Below are positions 5,042 to 27,241 of a stretch of DNA of 64,000 nucleotides, one piece after another. A program made the translations under genes and the position numbers. Every line of letters starts with the position of its first letter. Position 1 is the first letter of the stretch. The notes under the pieces were generated by a model. It was not told where the DNA came from and did not search any database. It worked only from the letters and a program-made list of their open reading frames with translations. The DNA comes from an uncultured Duodenibacillus sp. (GTDB lineage: Bacteria; Pseudomonadota; Gammaproteobacteria; Burkholderiales; Burkholderiaceae_F), in assembly GCA_944388865.1 (NCBI GenBank), contig CALXKM010000021.1, positions 5,482 to 69,481 of the forward strand, in the 5' to 3' direction.

Positions 5042-6824
5042 AGTTAAGGATCTTCATGTGGCGGTGCACGCTTCCGAAGGTTTGCTAGAAGCCGTAAGCG
5101 GCGTGAGCTTTTTTTTGCAAAAAGGGGAGTGCTTTGCTCTTGTCGGAGAGTCGGGGTGCGGCAAGTCGCTCACCGCGCTTTCCTTGATGCGGCTTTTGCC
5201 GGAATCTGCGCAGATTACCGCGGGTTCCGTGACGATTGATGGGGAAAATTTGCTTGAGCTTCCCGAAAAAGAGATGCAGTCTCGCCGCGGTGCGCAGATT
5301 GCGATGATTTTTCAAGAACCCGCAACAAGCTTAAATCCAGTATTGACCATTGGCGATCAAATTGTTGAAGCTGTGCTTTTGCATCAAAAGATCAGCAAAA
5401 AAGACGCGCGAAGCAAAGCGCTTGAGTGGCTTGAACGAGTGGGCATTGATGCACCGGAAAAAAGGTTTGAAGCTTTTCCGCATGAACTTTCCGGCGGGCA
5501 AAAGCAGCGCGTCATGATTGCCATGGCGCTAGCCTGCGAACCGCAAGTTGTGGTGGCTGATGAACCAACAACGGCACTTGATGTGACGCTGCAGGCGCAG
5601 ATTCTGGAGTTGCTCAAGAGATTGCAAAAAGAGCGCGGCATTGCCCTTTTGCTCATCACGCATGATTTGGCTGTTGTGAGGCAGTGCGCTGACCGTGTGG
5701 CATTGATGTACGCCGGGCAAATCGTTGAGGAAAATGCTGCAGCGGAATTTTTTGCTCATCCCCAGCATCCGTATGCCCGTCAGCTTTTGGCCGCAGTTCC
5801 TTCGGCAGATAAAAGCAAAGGACTTTTGACCGGCATTGCAGGAACAGTGCCGGAGCTTGGTGCAATGCCAAAGGGGTGTCGCTTCGCTCCGAGATGCAAA
5901 ATCGCCAAAAAGGAGTGCACGTGCCGAGAAATTCCTTTGATCAGAAGGACCAACCAAGCATCAATTCGCTGCCTTCGGACAGACTCCATCATTTCTCTTG
6001 AGAAGTTCGTTGAAGCACCGACGTCCAAATCTGGAGACATCGTTTTTGAAGTCCAAAACCTGAGTGTCTCTTATGAAAAAAAGCGCGGAATTTTACGATC
6101 ACCGCTTTTCTTTGATGCTGTCAAGAACGTAAGTCTTGCCGTTCGAGCGGGACAGACAGCCGCACTTGTGGGAGAGTCAGGCTCAGGCAAGACGACACTG
6201 GCCAAAGCGGCGTTGGGGCTTTTAGAGGACGCAAGGATTTCCGGCAAGGTGATGCTTGCTGGGCACTCTGCTTATGACGGGCATGGGCATTTTGATGCGA
6301 AGCTGCATGCATTGGCGCAGATCGTCTTTCAAGATCCCTTTGCTTCGTTAGATCCCCGCATGACGGTGGGCGAATGCATTGAAGAGGGGATAACGGCATT
6401 GCTTCCCGGCATGGAGAAGGCTCAAAGACAGCATCGGGTGAATGAACTGCTCGATCAGGTGGGGTTGGCAAAAAGCGCAGCCATGAAGCTTCCGCACGAG
6501 TTTTCTGGCGGCCAGCGGCAGCGCATCGCCATTGCTCGAGCGCTAGCCGTCGAGCCTCGCATCATGATTTGCGACGAACCCACGAGCGCGCTTGATGTTT
6601 CGGTGCAGGCTCAGATTTTGAATTTGTTGAGACAAATACAGGCAGAAACCGGGGTGGCGATGCTTTTCATTACGCACAACTTTGCCGTAGTTGAATACCT
6701 TGCGCATGAAGTGGCGGTAATGCGTCACGGCGAGTTGGTGGAGGCGGGCTGCGCTCATGAAGTGCTTGCAGGGCCGAAAACAAGTTACACGAGGGAGCTT
6801 TTAGCAGCAGTGCCGAGGATGTAA
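5034..6824 (+). CDS. ABC transporter ATP-binding protein with two fused ATPase domains (YejF-like)
   Basis: Two Walker A motifs (GESGCGKS, GESGSGKT), two signatures (LSGGQKQR, FSGGQRQR) and two Walker B motifs (VVADEPTTALD, MICDEPTSALD). The likely start is GTG 5034 (VLEVKDLHV), overlapping the permease stop. The track ORF begins at 4986. Confidence 0.9.
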   Translation: MLEVKDLHVAVHASEGLLEAVSGVSFFLQKGECFALVGESGCGKSLTALSLMRLLPESAQITAGSVTIDGENLLELPEKEMQSRRGAQIAMIFQEPATSLNPVLTIGDQIVEAVLLHQKISKKDARSKALEWLERVGIDAPEKRFEAFPHELSGGQKQRVMIAMALACEPQVVVADEPTTALDVTLQAQILELLKRLQKERGIALLLITHDLAVVRQCADRVALMYAGQIVEENAAAEFFAHPQHPYARQLLAAVPSADKSKGLLTGIAGTVPELGAMPKGCRFAPRCKIAKKECTCREIPLIRRTNQASIRCLRTDSIISLEKFVEAPTSKSGDIVFEVQNLSVSYEKKRGILRSPLFFDAVKNVSLAVRAGQTAALVGESGSGKTTLAKAALGLLEDARISGKVMLAGHSAYDGHGHFDAKLHALAQIVFQDPFASLDPRMTVGECIEEGITALLPGMEKAQRQHRVNELLDQVGLAKSAAMKLPHEFSGGQRQRIAIARALAVEPRIMICDEPTSALDVSVQAQILNLLRQIQAETGVAMLFITHNFAVVEYLAHEVAVMRHGELVEAGCAHEVLAGPKTSYTRELLAAVPRM

Positions 6825-6849: not shown

Positions 6850-7443
6850 CTATGCAATAAACTCGATTTTTCCGTTAGTCAGGGCGGTGCTTAAAAACAT
6901 GCCGAAATCATTAGCAAAAGGATTCTTGGGGCGCTTTAAACGATCAAGCATGAGAGTAACACGATCTTTGGTTAAATCAAATGGAAGCTCGCCTTTTTTG
7001 TAGTCTGGAAGCAATAAACGGTACAACGGCATATAGTCAGCATCCGTCATCGGGGTGTTGAAGTGCTGATGCTGTACGCAGATGGCTATCCATTTGTCCA
7101 TCAATGAATCTTCGCAATGTAGCATCAGAAAATCTTCAAAGTTCATTGTGGAGAAAAAGAAGTTGGGAATATTTTTAGGTTTTTGCTGATAATTTGTCTG
7201 AGAGTTTTTCGTATTGCGGATATAAATATCGCGATCAACCCAAACGTGAAAAGTTGATTTTCGGTTTCGCTGTTGTTCTTCTTTGAGTTTGGCTATGACT
7301 GAGCCATAATAACCCTGGTGGGCAACCCTGGGAATGAACGGTCCGACATCCCATGAATAATTGGTGCAGCGAAGAATTCTGTTGAGGCTTTGCAGGTAAG
7401 CGTTTTCCGAGCTGCCTTCGCAAATGATGGTGACAGGAAACAT
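6850..7443 (-). CDS. RloB-like (TOPRIM-like) protein, putative effector partner of the upstream AAA ATPase (AbiLii-like)
   Basis: Starting from ATG 7443 the protein begins MFPVTIICEGSSENAYLQ, then HVWVDRDIY, then FFFSTMNFEDFLMLHC. This matches my recollection of the RloB pattern (xxCEGxxxExxY ... D.D ... F E.W.LLH). It starts 7 nt after the ATPase stop and is preceded by GAGG. AT-rich. Confidence 0.7.
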   Translation of the reverse strand: MFPVTIICEGSSENAYLQSLNRILRCTNYSWDVGPFIPRVAHQGYYGSVIAKLKEEQQRNRKSTFHVWVDRDIYIRNTKNSQTNYQQKPKNIPNFFFSTMNFEDFLMLHCEDSLMDKWIAICVQHQHFNTPMTDADYMPLYRLLLPDYKKGELPFDLTKDRVTLMLDRLKRPKNPFANDFGMFLSTALTNGKIEFIA

Positions 7444-7450
7444 AGTCGCC

Positions 7451-8731
7451 TCACACGTAAGGAAAAGGAATGCCCCCAAATTCTCCGCGTAAATAGCGGC
7501 GTCGAAAGTCAGCGCTGTTTCGCAATCTAGGAATTTCAACAAGCCGCAAGAGCTTGCTTCCTTCAAAGCCTCGCTGGCTCACAATTCCGATCTCAGATAG
7601 ACCAAGCAAGTTCTCGGACAACAAGTCTGTGTTGTGTATGGTAAAAATCAATTGAGCCTTGTTTTCATTGATTCTTTTTTCTTTAAAGAGCTTGACGAGT
7701 TCCATCACTAGAAGACTATGCAGAGAGTCGTCAAGCTCATCAATCAGAACAGTCTTTCCTTGACGTATGGCAGCAAGCAGTCCGCCCAGTATTCGTGCAA
7801 GATGCTGTGTTCCTCGAGATTCATAAGAGATATCGAATTTAACAATTTCTCCGGCTTCGGTCTTGTGCAGCGTCTCTAATACGTGCAGAGAAAAATTGTT
7901 TCCGACATCTTCGAAAAGTTTCAGTATCTCGGCAGGCAGACCAGATTTTTCGGGATCTAAATTTTGTATGTTGATGCCGACAATTCTAAAGTCAAGTTTT
8001 TTCAGGTATTGAACAAACAACTCCTGAGCTTTTTGCATGTTGTCAGACTCTGTGCCGCCAAAAGTGTCGGCAAGCAGTTCGAGACCTCGATAAAAATCAA
8101 TGCTCTGATCAATAAAAATCAAATCAGATGTTATGAATTCTCTTGCCAGCAAAAGATTTTCGCTGATGCCAGGCAGCGCCAGGGGAAGTTCATTTAATAA
8201 AGTATTGACTTGTTGTTTGGTAGCGGCGTGAATGCATCGGGACTCAAATGTCGACAAGACGTCATCTTGCAGGGACTCGATGCCTTCATCCAAGAAGGCC
8301 AACTTTGCACCGACCACATCAAAAATCTTCCTTCCCTCGCATTCGAGGTGCTCAGCAACAATGCCGTTTTTACCGAATTCCAAAGAATACGAAAATCTTT
8401 TGAGTTCTTTCCAAAAAACAATAGAAAGAAGCGATGCATCGTGTACAGTTGCGGAAATTTTGTTGGGATTGAAGAAGTGTTTTTTCCAACCAGTTCTCAC
8501 GATTTGCTGCAGCAGACGCATAGCCAGCAAAACCGTTGTTTTGCCGGATGCATTTGGGCCATAGAGGGCCATGACAGGACACAGTCTGCTTTTGGTGCTT
8601 TTTCCTGCTTCAATGAATGGCCACAAGGGGCTCTCTTTGTAGCCGTTGGGAGCTTTCCCTTCGGCAAAGTTCAGCTGAAGATGAAGGTGTTTGATGCAGG
8701 AAAAATTTTTGATTTCTATGCTTTCGAGCAT
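7451..8731 (-). CDS. AAA_15/AAA_21-type ABC ATPase (AbiLi-like abortive-infection ATPase)
   Basis: 426 aa. N-terminus MLESIEIKNF, Walker A GPNASGKTT (8534-8560), signature-like ESRGTQHL, Walker B/D-loop VLIDELDDSLH and H-loop FTIHNT. An RloB-like gene follows immediately. AT-rich. Confidence 0.85.
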   Translation of the reverse strand: MLESIEIKNFSCIKHLHLQLNFAEGKAPNGYKESPLWPFIEAGKSTKSRLCPVMALYGPNASGKTTVLLAMRLLQQIVRTGWKKHFFNPNKISATVHDASLLSIVFWKELKRFSYSLEFGKNGIVAEHLECEGRKIFDVVGAKLAFLDEGIESLQDDVLSTFESRCIHAATKQQVNTLLNELPLALPGISENLLLAREFITSDLIFIDQSIDFYRGLELLADTFGGTESDNMQKAQELFVQYLKKLDFRIVGINIQNLDPEKSGLPAEILKLFEDVGNNFSLHVLETLHKTEAGEIVKFDISYESRGTQHLARILGGLLAAIRQGKTVLIDELDDSLHSLLVMELVKLFKEKRINENKAQLIFTIHNTDLLSENLLGLSEIGIVSQRGFEGSKLLRLVEIPRLRNSADFRRRYLRGEFGGIPFPYV

Positions 8732-8915
8732 GTCAACCCCTCCGAAAGAAGAAAGACCATTGTATCAAGATAAACAAATTTTTGGTTTATCTTCGCATCT
8801 ATTGTTTGTATTCTGCTTGGTTTTGCGTGCTTTGCCCGCAAGATGAATGAAAAAATGTCCTGTTTTTCAACGCAAGGCTGATCGCGCGAGTCGGATGGAG
8901 GACGCAGGGAGTACC

Positions 8916-14625: not shown

Positions 14626-16521
14626 ATGATCGGACTCATGCAGATTGCAGAGCCCGGCATGTCGGCAGCTCCGCACGAAGAGCGCTACGCCGTCGGCATT
14701 GACCTGGGCACCACGAATTCGCTTGTTGCCATTGTGCTCAACGGCACGACGGAAGTCATTGCCGATGAAAAGGGACGAAGCCTTTTGCCCTCGGTGGTGC
14801 GCTATTGTCCCGACGGCAGCATAGATGTGGGCTATGAGGCGGCCACTGACGCATCTTCAGATGCAGCAAATACCATCAGTTCGGTCAAGCGTTTGATGGG
14901 GCGTGGGTTAAAGGACGTTGCGGGCAGCATCATCTTTCCCTATGACTTTGAAGACGTTCCGGGCATGGTGAAGATTCGCACCCGAGCCGGCGTCAAAACG
15001 CCTGTGGAGGTTTCTGCGGAAATCCTCAAGGTGCTGCGCGAGCGTGCGCAAAAAAGAGTGGGAGCAGAACTTGTCGGAGCCGTCATCACGGTGCCTGCGT
15101 ACTTTGATGATGCACAGCGCCAAGCAACGAAGGATGCGGCAAGGCTTGCGGGCCTTACCGTTTTGCGGCTTCTCAATGAACCGACGGCGGCCGCCCTTGC
15201 CTATGGGCTTGACAATGGCGCAGAGGGCCAGTACCTCATTTATGACTTAGGCGGAGGCACGTTTGACGTATCGCTCTTGAGGCTTACCAAGGGCGTTTTC
15301 GAGGTGCTCGCCACGGGCGGCAATTCGGCTCTTGGGGGCGACGATTTTGATCACCGATTGGTGTGCTGGGCCATTGAAAAGTTGGGAGCCGGCGTTTCGG
15401 CTGAGATTCTAAGCGGGCCCGATAAGCGAACGCTCACGCTTGCGCTCAAGAAGGCCCGAGAAGAGTTGACGCAAAAAGAAAGCGTGTGCGTTGATGTGCA
15501 GTTGGCAAATGGCCGCAAGCTTGAAGCTGAGCTCACGCGCAAAGAGTTCGACGATATGGTCGCTCATCTTGTGCAAAAAACGATGGATGCGGTCAAAAAC
15601 GTGCTCTCAGACGCCGGCATGAGTGCTTCTGACGTCAAGGGGGTAGTGCTCGTGGGCGGCGCAACCCGCATGCCTTGCGTGAGAAAGGCCGTGGAAGATT
15701 ATTTCGGGCACGCTCCCTTTGCCGATATTGATCCCGACAAGGTGGTGGCGGTGGGGGCAGCCATGCAGGCCAATAAGCTTGCGGGCAACGCCTCGCAAGG
15801 CGACGACTGGCTGCTGCTAGACGTTACGCCCTTGTCGCTGGGTCTGGAAACGATGGGAGGTTTGGTCGAAAAGATTATTCCGCGCAACAGCCCCATTCCG
15901 GTGGCGATGGCGCAGGACTTTACGACCTTCAAGGACGGCCAGACGGCAATGGCGCTGCACGTGGTGCAGGGCGAGCGGGAAGTGGTCGACAAGTGCCGGT
16001 CGCTTGCGCGTTTTGAATTGCGCGGCATCCCGCCTATGGCCGCGGGCGCAGCGCGCATTCGCGTGACGTTTCAAATTGATGCCGATGGCCTTTTGTCGGT
16101 CTCTGCGCGTGAAACCCAAACCGGAGTGGAAAGCAGCATTGTCGTCAAGCCCAGCTACGGCTTGACCGATGAAGACGTCATCTCCATGCTCAAAGACGGG
16201 TCGGCAAGCGCTGAGGCCGATATGCGCGAGCGCGAGCTTAGAGAGCAGCGCGTAGAGGCCATGCGCTTGATTGAGTCGACGAATTCTGCCCTTGAAGCAG
16301 ATGCCGATCTCTTGAGCGCTGATGAGAGAGCGCTTATTGATGCTGCCATCCAAAAGCTTCAAGAGGCAGCTCAGAGCGAAGACGTTGACCGCATCAAAGA
16401 GGGCATTGCGGAACTTACCAAAGACACGGGCGAATTTGCAGCCCGCCGCATGGACCGCTCGATTCGCGAGGCACTCGCAGGGCGCTCCGTTGATGCCGTG
16501 ATTGAAGAAAAAGAGCAATAA
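14626..16521 (+). CDS. hscA: Fe-S protein assembly chaperone HscA (Hsp70 family)
   Basis: [29 protein letters not shown] is collinear with the E. coli HscA N-terminus. Hsp70 motifs occur throughout. Confidence 0.97.
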
Positions 16522-16549
16522 GTCGTATTTGCAAGTAAAGGATTTGATC

Positions 16550-16885
16550 ATGCCTTTTGTCACAATTCTTCCCAATGCCGCTCTTTGCCCAGAGGGTGCA
16601 AAGATTGAAGTTCAAACGGGCGAAAAAATTGCGCAAGCGCTCAACAAGGCCGGCATCAAGCTGCCTCATGCCTGCGAGTACAACTGCGCTTGCGCGACGT
16701 GCCACATCATTGTGCGCGAAGGCTTTGACAGCTTGAACGAACCAGATGACGACGAATATGATCAGCTCGACAACGCCTTTGGCGCAACGCCCTTTTCACG
16801 ACTGGCCTGCCAGACAGTGATGGGCAAAGAAGACATCACGATTGAAATTCCGAAAAACAACCGCAACCTCGTCACAGAAGAGTAG
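16550..16885 (+). CDS. fdx: [2Fe-2S] ferredoxin Fdx (ISC system)
   Basis: Starting from ATG 16550 the protein begins MPFVTILPN. It has HACEYNCACATCH plus a later C in LACQ, the adrenodoxin-type ligand pattern. The track ORF begins upstream at 16502. Confidence 0.93.
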   Translation: MPFVTILPNAALCPEGAKIEVQTGEKIAQALNKAGIKLPHACEYNCACATCHIIVREGFDSLNEPDDDEYDQLDNAFGATPFSRLACQTVMGKEDITIEIPKNNRNLVTEE

Positions 16886-16909
16886 GACGCGTTCGAAGGA
16901 GAAAGCATC

Positions 16910-17107
16910 ATGGGCTACAAGTGGACCGATGCTCGAGAGCTTGCTGAAGAGCTCTATGACAATGAACCAGAGCTTGACCCGGTGACGCTGCGCTTGAGCG
17001 AACTGCGCGAGCGCGTGCTTGCTCTCTCTGATTTTGATGATGATCCCGAAGCAAGCAACGAAAGAGTACTTGAGGCGATTTTGCAGGCGTGGATAGACGA
17101 GCGCTAG
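16910..17107 (+). CDS. iscX: Fe-S assembly protein IscX (YfhJ)
   Basis: 65-aa acidic protein MGYKWTDARELAEELYDNEPELDP..., last gene of the isc cluster. Confidence 0.9.
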   Translation: MGYKWTDARELAEELYDNEPELDPVTLRLSELRERVLALSDFDDDPEASNERVLEAILQAWIDER

Positions 17108-17154
17108 CCCTGATTGGGGAGTCGCAGAAAAAGTGAATCTTTGCGTGATAAGTT

Positions 17155-18546
17155 TCAGCACTCGGATATTTTGTGTGCGGCAAGCTCTGAAACCTCATGC
17201 CTAAACCGAAGAACGAACCATCCGCAAATCAGAAAAGAGCCGACTTCAGCTAAGGGCTGCGCGCTCTGCAGCCCAATGAGCCCAAAGGTCGGCGGCAGAA
17301 GAAGAATCATCGGCAAAAAGAAAAGTCCTTGCCGAGTGCTGGCAAGCAGCGTGGCGATCGTGGTGCGTCCGAGCACTTGATAAGTCATGTTGCCGATGAC
17401 GTTGACCGGCACCAAGGGCGCAACGGCGCACTGAAATTTAAGCGCCAGCACGGCCACGGCAAACACTTCCGGATCATTGGTTTCAAAAAATCCGATGACT
17501 TCTCGGGCAAAGATAAATCCCAGACAAGCTAGGCTTGTCATGACGACTGTCGACATCAAAAGCGTCGCGTCAAAGGCTTTCTTGACGCGGTCGAACTTTT
17601 TGGCTCCCCAGTTGTAGCCAAGTACCGGCTGAAAGCCTTGCCCGATGCCGATCAAAGCGGCAGCCGTGATCATCATGACGCGCCCGACAATCGACATGCC
17701 GGCAACGCCTGCGTCGCCAAAGCTTCCTGCCATAAGGTTCAATACCGACGCAGCAACAGCCCCGAGCACATTGCGGGTAAGCGACGGGATGCCGTTTTTA
17801 ACGAGAGAGACGTAGACAGCAGCGCTTCGCGAAATCCAGGAAGGCTGCATCGCAATGGAGCCTTTGCCGCGCATGTAGTGCGACAAAAGAACGAAAAAGG
17901 ATAGCGTCTGACACAAAGCCGTCGCCCAGGCGGCACCCGCAATTCCCGCATCAAGCACAAAGATGAAGACGGGCGCAACAGCAATGTTGAGCAGTCCCCC
18001 GGCGGCAAGCCCAATCATGCCCACAAGCGCCAGGCCCTCTGAGCGCAGAATATTGTTTAAAGTAAAAGCACCGGCCATGAAGGGCGAGGCCAAGAGTACT
18101 GCTTGAGCATATTGCCGGGCATAGGGCAAAATGGTGGGCGTTGCTCCCATGACGGACAAGAGCGCATCCACAAAAGCCCACGCAAGCAGAGCAAAAAGAG
18201 AACCCGCGCACAAGACGGCAAAGACGGCTGAGGTTGCAAGCGTATTGGCGCGTGCATAGTTTTGCGCTCCCAATAGGCGCGATGTCTGCGTTGCGCACCC
18301 CTGACCAATCATGATGCCGATGGCTTGAATGATCATCTGCAGGGCAAACACCACGCCCATGGCTCCGACGGCGGACGTGCCGAGGTAAGAGACGTAATAG
18401 GTGCTTGCCGTGTTGTAGAGCGCAGTGACAAGCATCGAGAGCATGGTGGGCACGCCCAGCCGCAGGACGAGTCCTGCCACGGGAGCCGTCGTCATGCGCT
18501 CAAACGTGCGGCTGGCCGCAAGGCCGCGAGCTTGCGGTTTGGTCAT
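17155..18546 (-). CDS. MATE family efflux transporter
   Basis: 12-TM protein with a MATE-like N-terminus (...VAGLVLRLGVPTMLSMLVTALYN). ATG 18546 is preferred; the track ORF extends to 18612. Confidence 0.85.
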   Translation of the reverse strand: MTKPQARGLAASRTFERMTTAPVAGLVLRLGVPTMLSMLVTALYNTASTYYVSYLGTSAVGAMGVVFALQMIIQAIGIMIGQGCATQTSRLLGAQNYARANTLATSAVFAVLCAGSLFALLAWAFVDALLSVMGATPTILPYARQYAQAVLLASPFMAGAFTLNNILRSEGLALVGMIGLAAGGLLNIAVAPVFIFVLDAGIAGAAWATALCQTLSFFVLLSHYMRGKGSIAMQPSWISRSAAVYVSLVKNGIPSLTRNVLGAVAASVLNLMAGSFGDAGVAGMSIVGRVMMITAAALIGIGQGFQPVLGYNWGAKKFDRVKKAFDATLLMSTVVMTSLACLGFIFAREVIGFFETNDPEVFAVAVLALKFQCAVAPLVPVNVIGNMTYQVLGRTTIATLLASTRQGLFFLPMILLLPPTFGLIGLQSAQPLAEVGSFLICGWFVLRFRHEVSELAAHKISEC

Positions 18547-19516: not shown

Positions 19517-20326
19517 TTAAGTCATTGCCGTCAAAAAGGCGACGGCGCTGTCCCAGGGAACAATGCCGGTGGCGATGCGCTCGAGCACATCTGCGGGTTC
19601 TAAAAGCTCAATGAAAGCAACTTCACCATCGGTATTGTGCACGTTTTCAGTGTTGTGTACGACGACTTTTTGACAAAACGCATCTTCGTGCATCCAGCCT
19701 TCTTCAACCGGACGGCGAATGGTAAATTGCCAAGAAGAGTCCTCTAAAGAATAGTCGCCGGGCTTGAGCCCAGCTTCTTCTGCGATTTCCCGGGCAAGAC
19801 TCTCGTGCGGCGCTTCACCCGCAGCAATGAGGCCCGCAGCAAGCGCATCCCAAAGTCCGGGGTCGACTTGTTTTGTGAAGCTTCTTTGGCTCATGAAGAT
19901 GCGGCCGTCTTCGGTCATCCCCACAGCGTAGATGCAGCGCGTTGCCATGCCTAAATAGCGAAAAAGTCCTCTTTCGGCTTGAGCGAGAACGTCTCCTGTG
20001 TCGAGATCGCGAACATCAAGCAGTTCTTTTCGCCATTGAAAGAAAAACCCTGCTTGGTGAAAGACGTTTGCCGCAAGTGCGAGACCTTCGTTGAAGTTCG
20101 ATTGAGGGGTAAAGACAACGCCTTGCGGCGTGCGGGAAAAAAGCGTGCTTAAAGAAGATGAGTTGATTTCGCCAACAGTCTTTTCTGAAATTAGGCCGAT
20201 GCGATGATCATTGAGCCAAAGATCAAGCATTCCTGCCGGAGGCAATTGTTGATTGAAGTCAAGAGCTTGTTCAAGCAGAGCTTGAGCTCGAGCGCGATCA
20301 GCGGCGGTCAAATGAAAGTCTGACAT
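19517..20326 (-). CDS. NUDIX family hydrolase
   Basis: Nudix box GLIAAGEAPHESLAREIAEEAGL (G-x5-E-x7-REUxEExGU). ATG at 20326; the track ORF starts at TTG 20335. Confidence 0.75.
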   Translation of the reverse strand: MSDFHLTAADRARAQALLEQALDFNQQLPPAGMLDLWLNDHRIGLISEKTVGEINSSSLSTLFSRTPQGVVFTPQSNFNEGLALAANVFHQAGFFFQWRKELLDVRDLDTGDVLAQAERGLFRYLGMATRCIYAVGMTEDGRIFMSQRSFTKQVDPGLWDALAAGLIAAGEAPHESLAREIAEEAGLKPGDYSLEDSSWQFTIRRPVEEGWMHEDAFCQKVVVHNTENVHNTDGEVAFIELLEPADVLERIATGIVPWDSAVAFLTAMT

Positions 20327-20451
20327 GGGAAGCAATGGGTACAGTCAAATGGGCGGCAGAAGGTTTTTCTTGACAGTGGGGGTTAAAAAAAATAAGCAGA
20401 GGCGCCTGCCGGTTTTTCCATATCCGGTGCAAAAGAGCGCTCAGGATGTCG

Positions 20452-20478
20452 AAAAAGCCGCAGAAGGCCGCGGCTTTT
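20452..20478 (-). terminator. Rho-independent terminator downstream of the SNF2 helicase gene (potentially bidirectional)
   Basis: GAAAAAGCCGC-agaaggcc-GCGGCTTTTC: a 7-bp GC-rich stem flanked by an A-run and a T-run, 16 nt after the SNF2 stop. Confidence 0.6.
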
Positions 20479-20493
20479 CGGCATCAGACGGAA

Positions 20494-23400
20494 TTAACGG
20501 GAAATCTTGAAGATTTCCTCAATTTCGCGGTTGGAAAGATCGCCGATCCAGGCCTCGCCTGTGGTGATCGTCACATCGGCCAGTTCCTTTTTGCGCTCAA
20601 TCATTTTGTTGAGCTTTTCTTCGAACGTGCCTTCTGTGATGAAGCGATAGACGATCACGTCGCGGTTTTGACCAATGCGGTAGGCGCGGTCATTTGCCTG
20701 GGCTTCGACGGCCGGATTCCACCACAGGTCGTAATGGATGACGGCAGAAGCTGACGTCAGATTAAGTCCCAAGCCGCCCGCTTTCAGCGAAAGCACCAAA
20801 ACTTTGGATTGAATGTCGTTTTGGAATCTGTCGATCATGGCCTGACGCTCGGCAAAGGGAACGCCCCCGTGCAGAAAGTCGGGCTTGCGTCCGAAGGCCT
20901 GCGCAATCCAGCCGACTAGAAGGTGCCCCATTTCGGCAAACTGCGTAAAGACAAGCACCTTGCGCTCGGCTTCAAAGCACTGGCCGAGCAGTTCAATAAG
21001 CGCCTGCCCCTTTCCCGAATCGGGCTTGTCGCAAGAACTCTTTTGAAAGTGGCTCGGCGAATTGACGATTTGCTTGAGGTGCGTGATCATGCGCAGAATG
21101 TTTCCCCGACGCTTGAGATTGAGCGCGGCTAGAGTCTGATTTTCTCCTTCAGAGCCTTCGGCGTTTTGTGCGCTGTCCTCGATTTGCCGGGTTTGCTCGG
21201 AGAGCTGATCGAGATCGGCTAAAGACGTTTTCAGACACTCTTCGTAGAGCGCAGTCTGCGCGACGGTAAGCGTCGTGAAGTAGTCGATGCTCTCACGGGC
21301 GGGCAAGTCGGCGATGATGTTTTTGTCGCTTTTCATGCGCCGAATCATGAAGGGTTTTGTGAGACGCCGGAACTGCTCGAGCACGAGTTCGCTGCGCTCT
21401 TCTTCAATCGGGCGTGCAAAGGTGTCGCGAAAGCTCTTGAGCGACCCCAAGAGCTTGGGCTGCACGGCGGCCATGATTGACCAGAACTCCTGCAGGCGGT
21501 TTTCAACAGGCGTGCCGCTCATGGCGATGACTTGCGGTGCAGGGAAATGCCGGGCGGCCGTTGACTGCTCGGTTGCTGAGTTTTTGATTGCCTGCGCTTC
21601 ATCGAGCACCAAAAGCCGCCATTTGCGTTTGCTTAAAATCCCAAGATCGTTGGCCAGAATGCGGTAGCTCGTGATGACGACGTCAGGCATCGTCTGAGGC
21701 AGCTTGCGGTTTTGTCCGTGATGAGCCGTCACGGACAGTGACGGGGCAAAGCGGGCAAGTTCGCGCATCCAGTTGGTGATGACGGAGGTTGGAACGACGA
21801 CAAGAACGCTGCCCTCGCTTAGTTCTCCATCGTTTTTAAACTGCTGCAGCGCAGCAATCACCTGCACCGTTTTGCCAAGCCCCATATCGTCGGCAATCAA
21901 GGCTCCGAGCCCCAAACGAAGGTTTTTCATGAGCCAGGAAAAGCCGCGCAGCTGATAAGGGCGCAGCGTTGCTGCAAGCTCTGCCGGCGGCTGCAGCTCG
22001 TCAACGGCCAAAAGCGCATTGAGTCGTTCGCGTACGGAGTCGGAAGCTTCTACTGCTGCGCCCTGATAGTTGCCCGTGAGAACCGCACGCAGCTTGTCCC
22101 AATTCGTGACGCGCTTGTTGGCGGCAAGTTGCCCTTGAATTTTTTCGGAAGCTTCCTGCGTGAGGTATACAAAACGGTCTTTGTAGGAGACGATATGTCC
22201 GGCCTTCTTGATGAGTCCGCGCAGTTCGTCAAGAGAAATGCGCGCGTTGCCCACAGCGGCTTCCCAGCGGAAATCGGCAAGAGAATATTTGTCGAGCAGT
22301 CCTTTTGTCTCGAGCGTTTCGCCCGCTTCGGCCACGGCAATGAGCTTGGGTTCAAGAAGATTTTTGAGCTCCTCGGGCAGACGCACGTAGATGCCGGCAA
22401 CAGCACATTTGGGCGCTTCGTTGAAGAGAAAATCCTCAATTTCAGATGTACTGAGCTCGACTTCGAGCGCTTCGTGCGGGGAAGCGGCATTTTTGGGCGT
22501 CTTTTTTGCTGCCTGCCGAATGTACTTGTCAAGCTTTTGCTTAAAACGGGAAAAAATGTTGAATGTGCTGCTATAGGTTTCAACGGTGTAAGCAGCCGCT
22601 CTAGCCAGAGCGGGATATGCCTTTTGAGCGCTTAGAACCTGATCGACGCGAATAAGGCGGCCATCAGCAATCTGCGTCTTTTTGGGGGTAAAGCCAATCG
22701 TTGCTGCTGCTTTGCCGCCGCCCGCGTTGCGAACGGATATCACCAGTTCTTCGGGCAGCGCCGTGCGAAGCAAAAGCGTGCGCAGATCGCTGTAGACGCA
22801 GCGCGAGTCAAAGCGATTGCGCTGAATATGAAAAAAGTAGTTGTCGTTGAGTTCGGGATTGGTTTTCCCAAAAGACGACGCAGTCAGACGCTCGACGATT
22901 TCATGATTTGCCAGAGACTTTTTGCTCTTCACGCTCATGCGCAAAATGGCTGAAACGGCAAGAGCAAGGGCGCGCAGCGCGGTGAGCTGCTCAACGTGCT
23001 TGCCCTGCATCTGAAGACTTTTGGCAAAGAGCTCTTTGCTGTAGGGGCTAAGCAATGCGGCAAGCCTTGAGACGCGCTCGCGCACCTGCGGAAGATACAT
23101 GGCCGGCAGCCACAAATAGTTGACTTCGAGCGTGTCTTCGTGCCAAACCGGAGTCGGAACGAGAGAGCCCGCAGCCAAAAGCTTGGCCGCCATGCGGACG
23201 ACGGCTCGCCAAACGACAAAGTTTTCCGGAGCATCAACTACGGCCCAGCGCGGCATCGTCATGAGCGGCACGAGAAACTGCTCGGCGCTAAGCTCCAAAG
23301 GCATATCGGCAGCCGTTTCTTTTTCATTGGGCTTGAATGGAGCCGGCGCAAGCGTTGCTTCAAAGACGAGGTCAAAGGGGCTTTCGTTCGGGCTTTCCTT

Positions 23401-24393
23401 GACGCTGAGATGCTCGAACGTTCTGCCAGCAAGGCCGCGCTCTTGGAGCATTTCTTCCCAGAGCGTGAGGGGGCGGCGGCCGCTTGGCTCAAAGTCGCTT
23501 TCGCCGGCCTCAAGAGCGGGCAGCAGTTTGCGAATCTGTCTTTGCGCGACGCCGAGAAGCTCCTCATAGCGACCGGCAAAAGGACAGTTTTCACGATAGA
23601 GCATGTTGCCGTGCCGATAGCTTTGCGCAACGTAAGCCGGCAATATGGAGCCCACCGTTGTGCCAAGCGAAGCAAAGGGCTGAAGTCCGAAAAAGAGAAG
23701 TTCGCCGTAGGCGCGGCGTTTGGTCGGCGGCAGTCCGATGTCAATGAGTTGGGCTTCATCGCGCAGAACGCGCTCAAGCGAACGGGGCAGCGCTGTGATC
23801 GGCCGTTGCGGCGAGAGCCCGTAATCATTGAGTGCTTTTGTGATGTCGCCGACGGCCACGTGCAGAAACGAGTCGGTATGAGTGCATATCCAGACAGCTA
23901 GAAAGACAGTGACCTGCCCCAGCACGTCGTCTTCGGTTTCTTCTGCGCCGATGTCGTCAAAGAACTCGGGCTTGCCGAGGTGAACAGAAAGGCGTTTGCC
24001 GTCAGGGATCGGATTGATGTCGTGCCTGAGCATCATTGCATGCAGCTCTCGCGGATAGACGCGAGCGAAGATTTTTTCCACCAGATCAGGACGCGTGATC
24101 AATTCGGCTATGAATCCGTCAAAACGCGTGTCGTCAACGAGCTTCCAAGGAGCTCGATAGGAAAAGGTAGTTTCCTCACCAAGGCCGTAGATAAACAAAA
24201 ACTTCAGAAGTTCGCCGTTTTGTGATGCACTGACGGCGTTGTCAATGGATTCAAGAAAATCTGGGTTTGAGACGTCGCGAAGCGCCAAATTAAATACTTC
24301 AAGCGATCTTTTCAAAAAACGGCGCGGAAGCCGAGCAGTGACGACCGATCGGATGAACTCCTCGGCCCAAAAGCGGTTTTCTGGATAGATCAT
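20494..24393 (-). CDS. SNF2-family DNA-dependent ATPase/helicase with a long (about 750 aa) N-terminal region
   Basis: The C-terminal half has LRPYQLRGFSWL...ADDMGLGKTVQ (motif I), VLDEAQAIKN (motif II), then LVFTQF...LSLKAGGLGLNLT...WWNPAVEAQANDRAYRIGQ (helicase C). The N-terminal region resembles the bacterial SNF2-helicase-associated domain; that rests on my recollection, not a search. Confidence 0.9.
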   Translation of the reverse strand: MIYPENRFWAEEFIRSVVTARLPRRFLKRSLEVFNLALRDVSNPDFLESIDNAVSASQNGELLKFLFIYGLGEETTFSYRAPWKLVDDTRFDGFIAELITRPDLVEKIFARVYPRELHAMMLRHDINPIPDGKRLSVHLGKPEFFDDIGAEETEDDVLGQVTVFLAVWICTHTDSFLHVAVGDITKALNDYGLSPQRPITALPRSLERVLRDEAQLIDIGLPPTKRRAYGELLFFGLQPFASLGTTVGSILPAYVAQSYRHGNMLYRENCPFAGRYEELLGVAQRQIRKLLPALEAGESDFEPSGRRPLTLWEEMLQERGLAGRTFEHLSVKESPNESPFDLVFEATLAPAPFKPNEKETAADMPLELSAEQFLVPLMTMPRWAVVDAPENFVVWRAVVRMAAKLLAAGSLVPTPVWHEDTLEVNYLWLPAMYLPQVRERVSRLAALLSPYSKELFAKSLQMQGKHVEQLTALRALALAVSAILRMSVKSKKSLANHEIVERLTASSFGKTNPELNDNYFFHIQRNRFDSRCVYSDLRTLLLRTALPEELVISVRNAGGGKAAATIGFTPKKTQIADGRLIRVDQVLSAQKAYPALARAAAYTVETYSSTFNIFSRFKQKLDKYIRQAAKKTPKNAASPHEALEVELSTSEIEDFLFNEAPKCAVAGIYVRLPEELKNLLEPKLIAVAEAGETLETKGLLDKYSLADFRWEAAVGNARISLDELRGLIKKAGHIVSYKDRFVYLTQEASEKIQGQLAANKRVTNWDKLRAVLTGNYQGAAVEASDSVRERLNALLAVDELQPPAELAATLRPYQLRGFSWLMKNLRLGLGALIADDMGLGKTVQVIAALQQFKNDGELSEGSVLVVVPTSVITNWMRELARFAPSLSVTAHHGQNRKLPQTMPDVVITSYRILANDLGILSKRKWRLLVLDEAQAIKNSATEQSTAARHFPAPQVIAMSGTPVENRLQEFWSIMAAVQPKLLGSLKSFRDTFARPIEEERSELVLEQFRRLTKPFMIRRMKSDKNIIADLPARESIDYFTTLTVAQTALYEECLKTSLADLDQLSEQTRQIEDSAQNAEGSEGENQTLAALNLKRRGNILRMITHLKQIVNSPSHFQKSSCDKPDSGKGQALIELLGQCFEAERKVLVFTQFAEMGHLLVGWIAQAFGRKPDFLHGGVPFAERQAMIDRFQNDIQSKVLVLSLKAGGLGLNLTSASAVIHYDLWWNPAVEAQANDRAYRIGQNRDVIVYRFITEGTFEEKLNKMIERKKELADVTITTGEAWIGDLSNREIEEIFKISR

Positions 24394-24617
24394 GGAAAGA
24401 AAAAAAGAGAAGGCAGACGAGAACCTGGTTGTCGACGGTGCTGTGCTTGAGAGGATTGTATCTTACCTGCTTGGCGTCAGTCTTTTTTCAAATGGCTCAT
24501 ATTCGCCTTTTTTACTGCGAAATGGAAGACTTGCATGAATCTGATTCGGGTAAAATGACCAATCCGAGGTTTGGACAAATGGTTCCGTCATTGTCGACGG
24601 TACAAGGGGACGCATAA

Positions 24618-25880
24618 ATGCGTTTGCATGTTAAGAATATAGGCATCTTGAATGATGCTGAGATTGAAATAGCAGGCATTACCGTTGTAGCAGGTGAAAA
24701 CAACACGGGGAAAAGTACATTTGGCAAAGCCCTTTACGCTGTCTTCAGTGGTCTGCATCAATTAGAAAAACGTGTAGAGAATGCAAAACGCATTGGCGCA
24801 ATGCGTGCGGCAAGCGGGGCGTTTGTCAAAATCAAAAGTTTGTCCTCCATTGATTGGTTTGAGTCTATTTGCCGTAAGATGGGAGCTACAAAGCTGACGG
24901 AAAGCTTGATTCATGAGATAGCGGAATCGTGCCCTGAAGAGCTGCTGAATGAAAAAGATGCTTTTGTGAAGAAAGCAACAAAAATTTTGTCTATGGATGA
25001 AAACATCATCAGGGAAAGACTGATGTTGGAGGCCTTTAATGGTGAATTTAGATCACAGATTCAAAATCAACTAAGTCGAGACGAACCATCGAGAGTTGAT
25101 TTGACCATACGAGATAGAACGATTTCTGTGACTATTCGTAATGAGTCAATTGATTCCTTCAGCGGTTTTGTAGATTTGATTCATACCCCTGTTTATGTTG
25201 ATGATTTGGCATCAAGCTTTGGAGGATCTAGGTCAGCCTTATTTGCCAGGGAGGCATTTAATTATCGGCATAATAGTAATTTATATGATTTGATCAACAG
25301 AAAATTGCCGGATGCTGAAGATCTAACTCGGGGAGAAGAGGGAGATGTTGTTCAGGATATTCTGAATGATCAATTGCTTAGATCGGTGCAGGAGCGATTT
25401 AACGAAATTTGCCATGGATCTCTGAGAATCATAGAAAAAGAGATAAAGTTTGTCGATGACAGCGTGCCGGGCATGCATTTGGATATGGTGAATGTGTCTT
25501 CTGGGTTGAAGACATTTTTGATTCTGCAAGAGTTGATTCGAAATGGGACAATATCTGAAAACGGCACGGTCATTATGGATGAGCCGGAAATTCACCTGCA
25601 TCCTCAATGGCAGGTGGTTCTTGCAGAGATGGTGGTGCTGCTACAGAAAGCAATGGGACTTCATATTTTGCTGACGTCGCATAGCCCGTATTTTATTTCT
25701 GCTATTGATGTATTTGCAAAAAAACATGGCGTCATTCAGAAAAATAGATATTATTTTGGGAAGAGGCAAGGAAACTTTGTTGAGATTGAGGACGTGACGA
25801 ATAGAATACGCGTTATTTATGATTCATTGGCTGAACCATATCAATTGATTCAAAATGAAGCGGATAAGTTTGAATCATGA
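24618..25880 (+). CDS. ABC/SMC-type AAA ATPase (AAA_15/AAA_21-like), candidate defence-system ATPase
   Basis: Walker A GENNTGKST (24693-24719). A helical insert of about 250 aa. Signature-like VSSGLKTF (25494-25517). Walker B/D-loop VIMDEPEIHLHP (25569-25604). H-loop TSHS (25674-25685). RBS aagggga lies upstream of the ATG. AT-rich. Confidence 0.85.
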   Translation: MRLHVKNIGILNDAEIEIAGITVVAGENNTGKSTFGKALYAVFSGLHQLEKRVENAKRIGAMRAASGAFVKIKSLSSIDWFESICRKMGATKLTESLIHEIAESCPEELLNEKDAFVKKATKILSMDENIIRERLMLEAFNGEFRSQIQNQLSRDEPSRVDLTIRDRTISVTIRNESIDSFSGFVDLIHTPVYVDDLASSFGGSRSALFAREAFNYRHNSNLYDLINRKLPDAEDLTRGEEGDVVQDILNDQLLRSVQERFNEICHGSLRIIEKEIKFVDDSVPGMHLDMVNVSSGLKTFLILQELIRNGTISENGTVIMDEPEIHLHPQWQVVLAEMVVLLQKAMGLHILLTSHSPYFISAIDVFAKKHGVIQKNRYYFGKRQGNFVEIEDVTNRIRVIYDSLAEPYQLIQNEADKFES

Positions 25881-26422
25881 AAATCCCTGTTGAGTTTGAT
25901 GAATATGAATCAACCGTTGCTGAATGTTCTTTTGATAAGGAGAACAAAAAGCCGTTGGTCGACAGCAATGAGGCAATGATTAATTTTGATGAAGTTGCGC
26001 AAGCTTATCCTAGTGAAGTTCAAATGGATTCGGTGCCTGCTTCGGCTGACGGCTTGTTTCTTGATGCAGACGGAAAGTATGTGTTTGCTGAATTTAAATC
26101 AGGAAAGCCAGATAGGTGGGAGATTCTTAGGAAAGGAGTAGACTCTGCGATCGTTTTGATTGATAAAAAGAATAAGACTATTGCATGGTTGCGTGAAAAT
26201 GCTGAATTTATACTGGTATATCCAGAGTTGCCGACCGCCTCAAATGATAGGCAGATAGAGACGTCAGAGGATTTGAATAGAGATTCGAGAAACAGGCTTT
26301 TCATGAAGGGAACAGCCAATGCGACGAATCAGATTCGTTTGTATACCCAGGGCTTAAAAGGGTATCTGTATAAAAATGTTTACGAAATGTCTCCCGAAAG
26401 ATTCAAAAAGCAATATTGTTAA
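25877..26422 (+). CDS. Hypothetical 181-aa protein with a PD-(D/E)xK-like motif, translationally coupled to the upstream ATPase
   Basis: Its ATG overlaps the ATPase stop as ATGA (25877-25880). It shares the islet's AT-rich composition. The motif is SADGLFLDADGKYVFAEFKSG (D58...E72-F-K74). I cannot recognise a family by eye. Confidence 0.6.
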   Translation: MKIPVEFDEYESTVAECSFDKENKKPLVDSNEAMINFDEVAQAYPSEVQMDSVPASADGLFLDADGKYVFAEFKSGKPDRWEILRKGVDSAIVLIDKKNKTIAWLRENAEFILVYPELPTASNDRQIETSEDLNRDSRNRLFMKGTANATNQIRLYTQGLKGYLYKNVYEMSPERFKKQYC

Positions 26423-26455
26423 GATCAATAATTTTGGGGATCCACGGGGGCTGCA

Positions 26456-27241
26456 TTAATTTTTGAGTTTGTAGCCTTTAACAAAAAGTGCTGTCGCAGC
26501 AGCAAGAAGCGCAACCGAGGCGGCCGCAACGATCGACAATGACAGCCATGGCGCGAAGTCGCTTTTGCCGAAAAAGCCGTAGCGAAAGCCGTCGATCATG
26601 TAAAAGAAGGGATTAAAAAGCGAGGCTTTGGCCCAAAAGGGAGGCAATTGCGAGACCGAATAAAAGACGCCCGAAAGAAACGTCAGCGGCAAGATGACAA
26701 AAGTCTGAAACGCTCCCATTTGATCGTACTTTTCTGCCCATAGTCCGCAGATGACGCCCAGGCTTGCCATGATGACTGAGCCCAGCACGGCAAAGAGCAC
26801 GATCCACAATGGATGTTTCAAGGCAGGAATGCTCCAGAAAAACGCTGCCAAAAGAACGCCCGTACCCACAATCAGGCCACGCACGACAGAGGCCGCAATA
26901 TAGGCTGCGGCAAGCTGCCAGCCTGAAAAAGGAGGCAGCAGCACGAAGACCATGCTGCCGGTGATCTTGGACTGCAAGATGGAAGAGGCAGAATTGGCAA
27001 AGCTATTTTGTAAAAGCGTCATCATCACCAAGCCAGGGATGAGAAAATCGATGTAGGAGACGCCTTCGAGAACCGTCATTTTGCCTTCGAGCACTCCGCC
27101 GAAAACAAGCAGATACAGCGTCGAGGTGAGAATCGGGGCGAGCACCGAGTGCAGGGCAATTTTTCTAAAGCGCAGAATCTCCTTTTCAAAGAGAGTGAAA
27201 AAGGCGGCGCGGCTGTTGTAGGCTAGGGGCTGAGGCTGCAT
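26456..27241 (-). CDS. yadH: ABC-2 type transporter permease YadH-like
   Basis: Collinear with E. coli YadH as I recall it: FLIPGLVMM...LPLTFLSGVFYS...LPPFW...NPFFYMIDGFRYGFFG. Confidence 0.88.
   Translation of the reverse strand: MQPQPLAYNSRAAFFTLFEKEILRFRKIALHSVLAPILTSTLYLLVFGGVLEGKMTVLEGVSYIDFLIPGLVMMTLLQNSFANSASSILQSKITGSMVFVLLPPFSGWQLAAAYIAASVVRGLIVGTGVLLAAFFWSIPALKHPLWIVLFAVLGSVIMASLGVICGLWAEKYDQMGAFQTFVILPLTFLSGVFYSVSQLPPFWAKASLFNPFFYMIDGFRYGFFGKSDFAPWLSLSIVAAASVALLAAATALFVKGYKLKN

Follow-up and report, generated by a model that had tools for sequence, protein, structure and literature searches.

An AT-rich two-gene islet of an uncultured Duodenibacillus pairs an OLD-like ABC ATPase with a probable PD-(D/E)xK nuclease: a candidate anti-phage module of an unnamed family

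What is a short, AT-rich pair of genes doing between a helicase gene and a transporter gene in the genome of an uncultured Duodenibacillus sp.? The pair lies in a stretch of 64,000 nucleotides (contig CALXKM010000021.1 of assembly GCA_944388865.1, positions 5,482 to 69,481 of the forward strand), which is referred to here as the window and whose numbering is used throughout. An earlier reading of the letters and open reading frames of the window (the sequence-only reading) had proposed the pair as a two-gene defence system of an undescribed kind, composed of an ATP-binding cassette (ABC) ATPase and a small nuclease-like protein. We suggest, at a probability of roughly 0.65, that the islet is a horizontally acquired module of a nuclease and a nucleoside triphosphatase (nuclease-NTPase) whose role is most likely anti-phage, through abortive infection or the degradation of nucleic acids. 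Its parts are as follows.

24476 to 26418, no strand assigned: islet proper, an AT-rich inserted segment of about 1.94 kb with a G+C content (GC) of 0.40, delimited by blastn homology breakpoints against strain contigs.
24476 to 24617, plus strand: leader of gene 1 within the insert, with the presumed promoter; the Shine-Dalgarno sequence AAGGGGA (24604-24610) lies 7 nt 5' of the ATG.
24618 to 25880, plus strand: gene 1, a 420-aa ABC-type ATPase (AAA_15/AAA_21, OLD-like), recognized by Pfam, PADLOC and phrog_14430 matches and by its motifs.
25877 to 25880, plus strand: ATGA overlap of the stop of gene 1 and the start of gene 2, read from the sequence; relatives overlap likewise or nearly abut.
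25877 to 26422, plus strand: gene 2, the 181-aa partner, a probable divergent PD-(D/E)xK nuclease, judged by an invariant motif, an AlphaFold2 model and weak Foldseek neighbours.

The two co-directional open reading frames (ORFs) and their ATGA overlap are present as first described, between the start of an SNF2 helicase gene (24393) and the stop of a yadH-like ABC-2 permease gene (26456), both of which lie on the minus strand. Together they form a module of 1,805 bp, and the overlap suggests that the two genes are translationally coupled. The drop in G+C that had drawn attention to the locus was borne out: the GC of the module is 0.403 versus 0.542 for the remaining window, and the module coincides with the 1.8-kb segment where GC is lowest in the whole 64 kb (0.4005 at 24631-26435; window mean 0.538), an outlier with a z of about −4 in sliding windows and about −5 in non-overlapping windows. 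Local GC is 0.38-0.43 across 24400-26400 versus 0.49-0.59 in the flanks, and GC at third codon positions is 0.39-0.40 in the module genes versus 0.60-0.63 in the SNF2, yadH and ABC transporter genes. Searches of the islet found no tRNA, no mobility gene and no convincing terminal repeats beyond one 12-nt inverted repeat, in agreement with the earlier description, and no Rfam element was matched there. The inverted repeat is perfect (GAATCTGATTCG at 24537-24548 and CGAATCAGATTC at 26325-26336) and lies about 60-80 nt inside the insert ends, with its right arm inside the coding sequence of gene 2. Chance alone would yield about 0.16 pairs of this kind, and the repeat is probably without meaning.

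As to the host, the IscS protein of the window shares a 90%-identity cluster with MDR3898440.1 of a Duodenibacillus sp. metagenome-assembled genome (Sutterellaceae). The history of the junction was read from a blastn comparison of the window with contigs of related strains (L009 and L010-L013). L009 is 98.3% identical to the window on the SNF2 side and 93.9% identical on the yadH side. In this strain, homology ends at 24475 and restarts at 26455, and the intervening 24476-26454 is replaced by 205 unrelated bases, so that an islet-free junction of the kind that the sequence-only reading had proposed to look for does exist. L010-L013 are 96% identical on the yadH side from 26419 on; they contain a DDE_Tnp_1 insertion sequence (IS) element between yadH and a NUDIX gene and carry neither SNF2 nor the islet. 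Because L009 has only unrelated bases at this place and L010-L013 have the IS element only, the segment at about 24476-26418 is an insertion. The junction between yadH and the NUDIX gene is likewise a strain-variable hotspot, since the window holds SNF2 and the islet there, L009 holds SNF2 only, and L010-L013 hold the IS element only. L002, from a second sample, carries this insertion too, at an identical position and with 98% nucleotide identity. Horizontal acquisition of the pair is thus supported by direct observation of an insertion polymorphism. The hotspot was noted over window positions 19517-27241, and the SNF2/DUF3670 helicase is a protein of 1,299 aa with ZorD/DpdE-like PADLOC matches over its helicase core. 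The helicase is itself accessory, because the content of this hotspot differs among strains. A functional link between the islet and this ZorD/DpdE-like SNF2 helicase was considered and rejected: L009 carries SNF2 without the islet, and the two are therefore independent.

Gene 1 matches the Pfam families AAA_15 (69.4 bits against a cut-off of 32.1, residues 2-360) and AAA_21 (57.2 bits against a cut-off of 27). These matches above cut-off place it, as had been read by eye, in the AAA_15/AAA_21 (OLD-like) group of the ABC ATPase superfamily with no fused nuclease. It carries the motifs GENNTGKST at 26-34, VSSGLKTF at 293, VIMDEPEIHLHP at 318 and TSHSPYF at 353, with an insert of about 259 aa between the ATPase motifs. 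The key residues are the Walker A lysine K32 (codon 24711-24713), S294 and G296 of the signature, D321-E322 of Walker B (25578-25583) and H355 of the H-loop (25680-25682); 8 relatives, the most distant at 43% identity, keep the residues of all four motifs unchanged. The motif positions of the sequence-only reading held, but its number for the Walker A lysine has to be corrected from K31 to K32, and the mutant that it had proposed becomes K32A. Gene 1 has about 2,000 homologues and matches phrog_14430, a family of unknown function, over its full length (6.4e-41). Its top PADLOC match is PD-T4-4_A (105.8 bits, 7.7e-31, in two separate stretches), followed by HEC-02A (80 bits, E of 5.6e-23, residues 2-400 on model positions 5-314 of 337) and AriA (78.7 bits, 1.8e-22), with PDC-M47A and NsnB also among the best matches; in NCBIfam, only weak PtuA and Eco8-effector matches were found, far under cut-off. 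Five ATPases of the family from very different hosts score alike, at 70-90 bits, on HEC-02A, PD-T4-4_A, NsnB and AriA. As a control, the ATPase of an AbiL system in the same window gives 207 bits on its own AbiLi model. The best matches of gene 1 are ATPases of validated defence systems, which argues for an anti-phage role of the pair.

Gene 2 lies outside the named families, as had been claimed for it: no match was found in Pfam, NCBIfam, PADLOC or PHROGs. A word-seeded search with it recovered 2 relatives only. An exhaustive profile search recovered 846 representatives at E≤1e-3 (300 at E≤1e-10), and a profile-seeded word search recovered at least 2,665 clusters at 90% identity; all named clusters among these at least 2,665 are called "hypothetical protein", and none contains a Pfam domain. 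The family was aligned with 111 diverse members that are 22-47% identical to gene 2. In this alignment, D58, E72, F73, K74 and K86 are invariant in 111 of 111 sequences and S18, D20, F37, D38, S56, S90 and R106 are nearly so (D38 in at least 90%); the D...ExK motif that had been noticed by eye is thus real. D38, D58 (codon 26048-26050), E72 (26090-26092) and K74 (26096-26098) are the candidate catalytic residues. K86, D89 and S90, which lie on the helix after the ExK strand, belong to the same list of candidates.

An AlphaFold2 model built on the same alignment is an alpha/beta protein with a mean confidence (pLDDT) of 92.7 and a predicted template modelling score (pTM) of 0.86; a model from a 3-sequence alignment reached a pLDDT of 40 and was discarded. 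The predicted elements are a helix at 37-48, strands at 59-62 and 68-73, a helix at 80-98 and a strand at 109-114. D58 immediately precedes strand 59-62 and E72/K74 close strand 68-73, and the two strands are neighbours in a hairpin. The PD-(D/E)xK core is a restriction-endonuclease-like fold with the order alpha-beta-beta-beta-alpha-beta, and the element order of the model fits that expected for such a core. The best Foldseek neighbour, a weak one, is NucS (2vld; NucS/EndoMS) with an E of 0.034, a probability of 0.75 and a TM score of 0.28, and the weak list consists mostly of PD-(D/E)xK proteins (HamA, Cas4-like ACE1, Card1, XPF, Mus81, Exo5, BstEII and XisH). Some family members weakly match HEC-02B, DruK, HamA and SduA_C by sequence, and a weak CARF_PDDEXK match in the family falls on the ExK strand. 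Library searches detected no Toprim, DUF4435, RloB or HNH domain in gene 2 or its family. In our view, gene 2 probably encodes a divergent PD-(D/E)xK nuclease, for which the motif evidence is strong and the fold evidence suggestive. The convergence of the invariant D58, E72, K74 and K86, the model and the weak matches on PD-(D/E)xK nucleases is a further argument for the anti-phage reading. As a side observation, 30 of the 111 family members match phrog_25533 (best E of 3e-8, unknown function), but gene 2 does not; phage databases therefore hold a fragment of the family, unannotated. Two family members are longer, P0164 (270 aa) and P0145 (231 aa), and the match of P0164 at residues 113-230 suggests either an N-terminal fusion or a mis-called start.

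The two genes travel together. The census of the pair was made with a genome scan seeded with the ATPase alignment in 185,579 species representatives, in which the best 80 loci were checked for the partner; a scan seeded with the gene 2 alignment gave pattern matches and no confirmed relative. ATPase relatives are present in at least 461 of the 185,579 representatives, scattered across phyla. A partner ORF follows directly downstream on the same strand in 79 of the 80 best loci (E of 1e-8 to 1e-69), as well as in 10 of 11 viral loci from IMG/VR, 6 of 6 metagenomic prophage loci and 2 of 2 short contigs, and both gene 2 relatives from the word search have the same ATPase upstream with the same overlap. 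The co-occurrence that the sequence-only reading had proposed to count was thereby found. The 80 loci span Bacillota, Bacteroidota, Spirochaetota, Actinomycetota, Fusobacteriota, Campylobacterota, Fibrobacterota, Chloroflexota and one Methanosarcinales metagenome-assembled genome, at 29-37% identity. The pair is a conserved, strictly co-occurring two-gene module across phyla. A single ATPase locus of the 80 (L049) has no detectable partner, and the partner ORF is short or displaced in three others (L040, L041 and L046); decay of the copies or frameshifts in sequencing may explain these loci. In the Methanosarcinales case, the pair lies at 493-2377 of L066, a 6.6-kb contig assigned to the archaeal genome (partner E of 8.5e-23), which reflects either cross-domain transfer or a binning error.

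Phages and prophages carry the module as well. In the GenBank phage MT835532.1 (unannotated, 40 kb, from human faeces), the pair lies at 16467-18138 on the minus strand; its ATPase is 32% identical to gene 1 and its partner 34% identical to gene 2. Lambdoid-type prophages harbour the closest ATPase relatives (57-67% identity), with repressor, SSB and replication genes on one side and terminase on the other, and the partners of these relatives are proteins of 172-180 aa that are 43-47% identical to gene 2. These copies are AT-rich too, with a GC of 0.36-0.39 versus 0.52-0.54. In several prophages, the gene of the superinfection exclusion protein SieB lies beside the pair; in L004-L006 it occupies 4744-5289, about 700 nt and two genes upstream of the ATPase gene, and this adjacency suggests that accessory defence genes of the prophages are clustered there. 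An anti-phage role is suggested by the fact that the pair is conserved as a module, mobile and AT-rich, and also by the fact that its closest relatives are borne by prophages beside SieB, given that WonAB, a validated defence pair, also resides in a prophage. The family shows broad conservation, and gene 2 has a ratio of non-synonymous to synonymous substitution rates (dN/dS) of about 0.24 against its L002 allele, a value based on few substitutions (9 synonymous and 9 non-synonymous changes); both points are in favour of the same role.

Is this combination of proteins a new kind of system? The claim that its logic and effector type are undescribed did not survive comparison with the literature, because an ABC ATPase with a small PD-(D/E)xK protein has already been validated as PD-T4-4, HEC-02 and WonAB; "nuclease-NTPase" is a recognised class for such systems (bioRxiv 10.1101/2025.07.10.664194). 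PD-T4-4 from E. coli ECOR58 is a validated "ATPase, nuclease" operon of 1,973 bp (Vassallo et al. 2022; PMC9519451), the nuclease of which has been classed as PD-(D/E)xK (bioRxiv 10.1101/2025.07.10.664194). The present pair resembles it in being a two-gene operon of about 2 kb (1,805 bp here), in its ABC/AAA_15-type ATPase and in its location on mobile elements. However, the partner differs: in a comparison made through PADLOC models only, PD-T4-4_B models gave no match for gene 2 (E≤1), for the 111 family members (E≤0.01) or for 5 further partners (E≤0.001). The PD-T4-4_A score of gene 1 is modest and split, and other ATPases of the family reach 70-87 bits, level with HEC-02A, NsnB and AriA. 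A tblastn search of plasmids for PD-T4-4 gave 9 distant ATPase matches only. Membership in PD-T4-4 was rejected, as the partner has no PD-T4-4_B match.

HEC-02 joins an ABC ATPase to a small PD-(D/E)xK protein that is NERD-like and carries the motif (D/E/Q)xK, and its defence needs both genes (Payne et al. 2024; bioRxiv 10.1101/2024.01.29.577857). The likeness extends to the ABC ATPase with a small PD-(D/E)xK-type partner, and HEC-02A covers gene 1 over its full length, but the model has about 337 positions versus the 420 aa of gene 1 and the scores are at the level of the superfamily. HEC-02B is weakly matched by 8 of the 111 partner-family members (best 3e-4) but not by gene 2 itself, and Pfam NERD is matched by none of the 111. 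Membership in HEC-02 was rejected, since gene 2 has no HEC-02B match and the family has no NERD match.

WonAB is a prophage-borne pair of an OLD-ABC ATPase and a variant PD-(D/E)xK protein that acts by abortive infection via translation arrest; its defence is abolished by WonA K34A and by WonB K71A, and active WonA is required for WonB to be toxic (Adams et al. 2025; PMC12137116). An "OLD-ABC ATPase + Novel REase" operon of this architecture has also been described bioinformatically. The present pair shares with WonAB the order of an ATPase gene followed by a gene for a small variant PD-(D/E)xK effector and the carriage by prophages. The likeness to WonB includes a D-x13-E-x-K-G core with an upstream (V/F)D, and the positions of WonB K71 and WonA K34 match those of K74 and K32. 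In the hhalign alignment, FD38, D58 and E72xK74 are paired with VDG, CD and ELK of WonB. WonB differs in its length (about 140 aa versus 181 aa) and in the helix after ExK, which reads A-x2-Q versus K-x2-DS here. The reference sequences of WonA, WonB and the OLD-ABC ATPase/Novel REase proteins (7 ATPases and 13 effectors) were those of Supplementary Tables 4 and 5 of PMC12137116. Gene 1 scores 15-34 bits by phmmer against the 7 ATPases, and the aligned parts are confined to the P-loop at the N-terminus and the Walker B/H-loop at the C-terminus; a gene 2 profile built from the 111 family members does not exceed 11.3 bits on the 13 effectors. Low phmmer, profile and hhalign scores against these references led us to reject membership in WonAB or the Novel REase group. 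The D/ExK geometry is shared but the scores are low, and it is therefore the motif geometry that is common and not the family membership.

AbiL, PARIS, Septu, Gabija and OLD systems resemble the pair in their class of OLD-like ABC ATPase sensor and in their two-gene sensor-effector logic, but they use RloB, Toprim, DUF4435 or HNH effectors and gene 2 is none of these. On the sequence models compared, we regard the pair as a separate family inside the known nuclease-NTPase kind that belongs to none of PD-T4-4, HEC-02 and WonAB, because its partner matches none of the effector models and its ATPase scores at most 106 bits versus the 207 bits of the AbiLi control. By the same models, the novelty is limited to this particular ATPase/partner family, which no PD-T4-4, HEC-02 or WonAB model covers; the pair brings no new principle.

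The control system itself lies at window positions 6850-8731 on the minus strand, 17 kb from the pair, where the GC of the window is second-lowest (0.43 at 7066-8870). This AbiL-type islet encodes a 426-aa AAA_21/AAA_15 ATPase (PADLOC AbiLi, E of 7.4e-62), which has no similarity to gene 1 detectable by BLASTP, and a 238-aa RloB-like protein (AbiLii, 3.7e-7). As this catalogued AbiL-type system is bona fide and occupies a second AT-rich islet, the host does acquire ATPase-nuclease defence pairs as small islets, and the presence of AbiL in the same genome is one more argument for the anti-phage reading.

How might the module work? We propose that the gene 1 ATPase, which is probably dimeric, would act as the sensor of infection and as the regulator, and that the gene 2 effector nuclease would be produced in coupled amounts through the ATGA overlap, from a promoter that is presumed to lie inside 24476-24617. 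The ATPase may hold, stabilise or activate the nuclease; upon infection, an ATP-dependent change of the ATPase would license the nuclease, which may then cut phage DNA or host RNA (tRNA or rRNA), so that phage production would stop and the infection would be aborted.

The anatomy of the genes, their conservation, their co-occurrence and their mobility were observed directly; the formation of a complex, the sensing, the nuclease activity, its target and the defence phenotype are drawn by analogy from PD-T4-4, HEC-02, WonAB and PARIS. Several observations weigh against this reading. Gene 1 resembles defence ATPases no further than at the level of the superfamily (70-106 bits versus 207 bits for the AbiLi control). 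A PDB sequence-profile search with gene 2 gave no match, and a Foldseek search of its model against PDB and BFVD returned nothing at E≤0.001; of the structural check that the sequence-only reading had recommended, a list dominated by PD-(D/E)xK proteins was thus obtained but a significant match was not. The hhalign alignment of the gene 2 family with WonB/Novel REase reaches a probability of 28.3% over 44 catalytic-core columns, and a simple scan upstream of gene 1 found no sigma-70 consensus. A survey of the two nearest genes on each side in 32 diverse loci gave no clear defence-island enrichment around the module: the neighbours are mostly housekeeping genes, such as those of Gly-tRNA synthetase, Mfd, transporters, glycosyltransferases and two-component systems, and few match defence models (AriAB, DRT, PDC-S01 and MzaA). 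The module is therefore usually a solitary islet and does not sit in a classical defence island.

These surroundings bear on the question of whether the pair is a selfish addiction module of the toxin-antitoxin (TA) type, in which gene 2 would be a toxin restrained by the ATPase and the pair would be kept because its loss kills the cell, with no anti-phage benefit. Pfam annotates AAA_21 as "putative AbiEii toxin, Type IV TA system"; small size, mobility, AT-richness and a frequently solitary position among housekeeping genes with no defence-island enrichment would also suit such a module; and WonB alone is toxic if over-produced (PMC12137116). However, a simple TA model has been rejected for WonAB, since the toxicity of WonB needs active WonA (PMC12137116), the defence of HEC-02 requires both of its genes (10.1101/2024.01.29.577857), and the accessory position beside SieB in prophages fits a protection of the host. 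TA behaviour and defence by abortive infection are, moreover, compatible. We regard a purely selfish module as quite improbable. A role in repair, recombination or the phage life cycle, in which an SMC/RecF/SbcC-like ATPase would work with a structure-specific nuclease, seems to us no more probable than that. It could draw on weak matches of gene 1 to RecN, Rad50 and SMC_N, on the repair nucleases among the best fold neighbours of gene 2 (NucS/EndoMS, XPF, Mus81 and Exo5) and on the position of the module next to the SNF2 helicase gene in the window and next to replication genes in prophages. However, these ATPase matches are confined to the P-loop, at 13-17 bits, and SNF2 is present in L009, which lacks the islet. 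Near-identical strains do not have the pair, so that it cannot serve a core function, and its scattering over at least 461 of the 185,579 species representatives is a pattern typical of accessory conflict genes.

The anti-phage reading with a nuclease effector has to be set, in addition, against the view that gene 2 is not a nuclease at all and that its D, E and K residues serve nucleotide or ligand binding or another hydrolysis, which would make it a non-nucleolytic effector. Gene 2 has no significant match to solved or annotated nucleases, the helix after ExK reads K86-x2-D89-S90 versus A-x2-Q in WonB/Novel REase, and nothing recognisable corresponds to the C-terminal half (residues 100-181). 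Against this view, D-x13-E-x-K on a beta-hairpin downstream of the acidic D38 of a helix is the canonical PD-(D/E)xK arrangement and aligns with the WonB motif, and the weak matches in three independent libraries are almost all to PD-(D/E)xK proteins; we consider the non-nuclease view unlikely. All three explanations are less likely than the anti-phage reading. A more far-reaching version of that reading, in which the pair represents a large cross-phylum immune family, so far unnamed, whose effector is a new branch of the PD-(D/E)xK fold that lacks close structural neighbours and whose trigger or target (possibly RNA, as proposed for WonB) is unlike those of PD-T4-4, HEC-02 and WonAB, can be put forward only tentatively, and we would place it somewhat below even odds.

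If functional, the pair would enlarge the growing nuclease-NTPase class by a widespread defence family. This family occurs commonly in Bacillota, Bacteroidota, Actinomycetota, Spirochaetota and Sutterellaceae of the human gut and in prophages of these groups, and it is unannotated in PADLOC v2, Pfam, NCBIfam (June 2026) and PHROGs. Models built from the present alignments could allow annotation tools to detect thousands of gene pairs that are now "hypothetical". As a fourth independent pairing of an ATPase with a PD-(D/E)xK protein, it may also be compared with the other three, which could bring out general features of sensing and of effector licensing.

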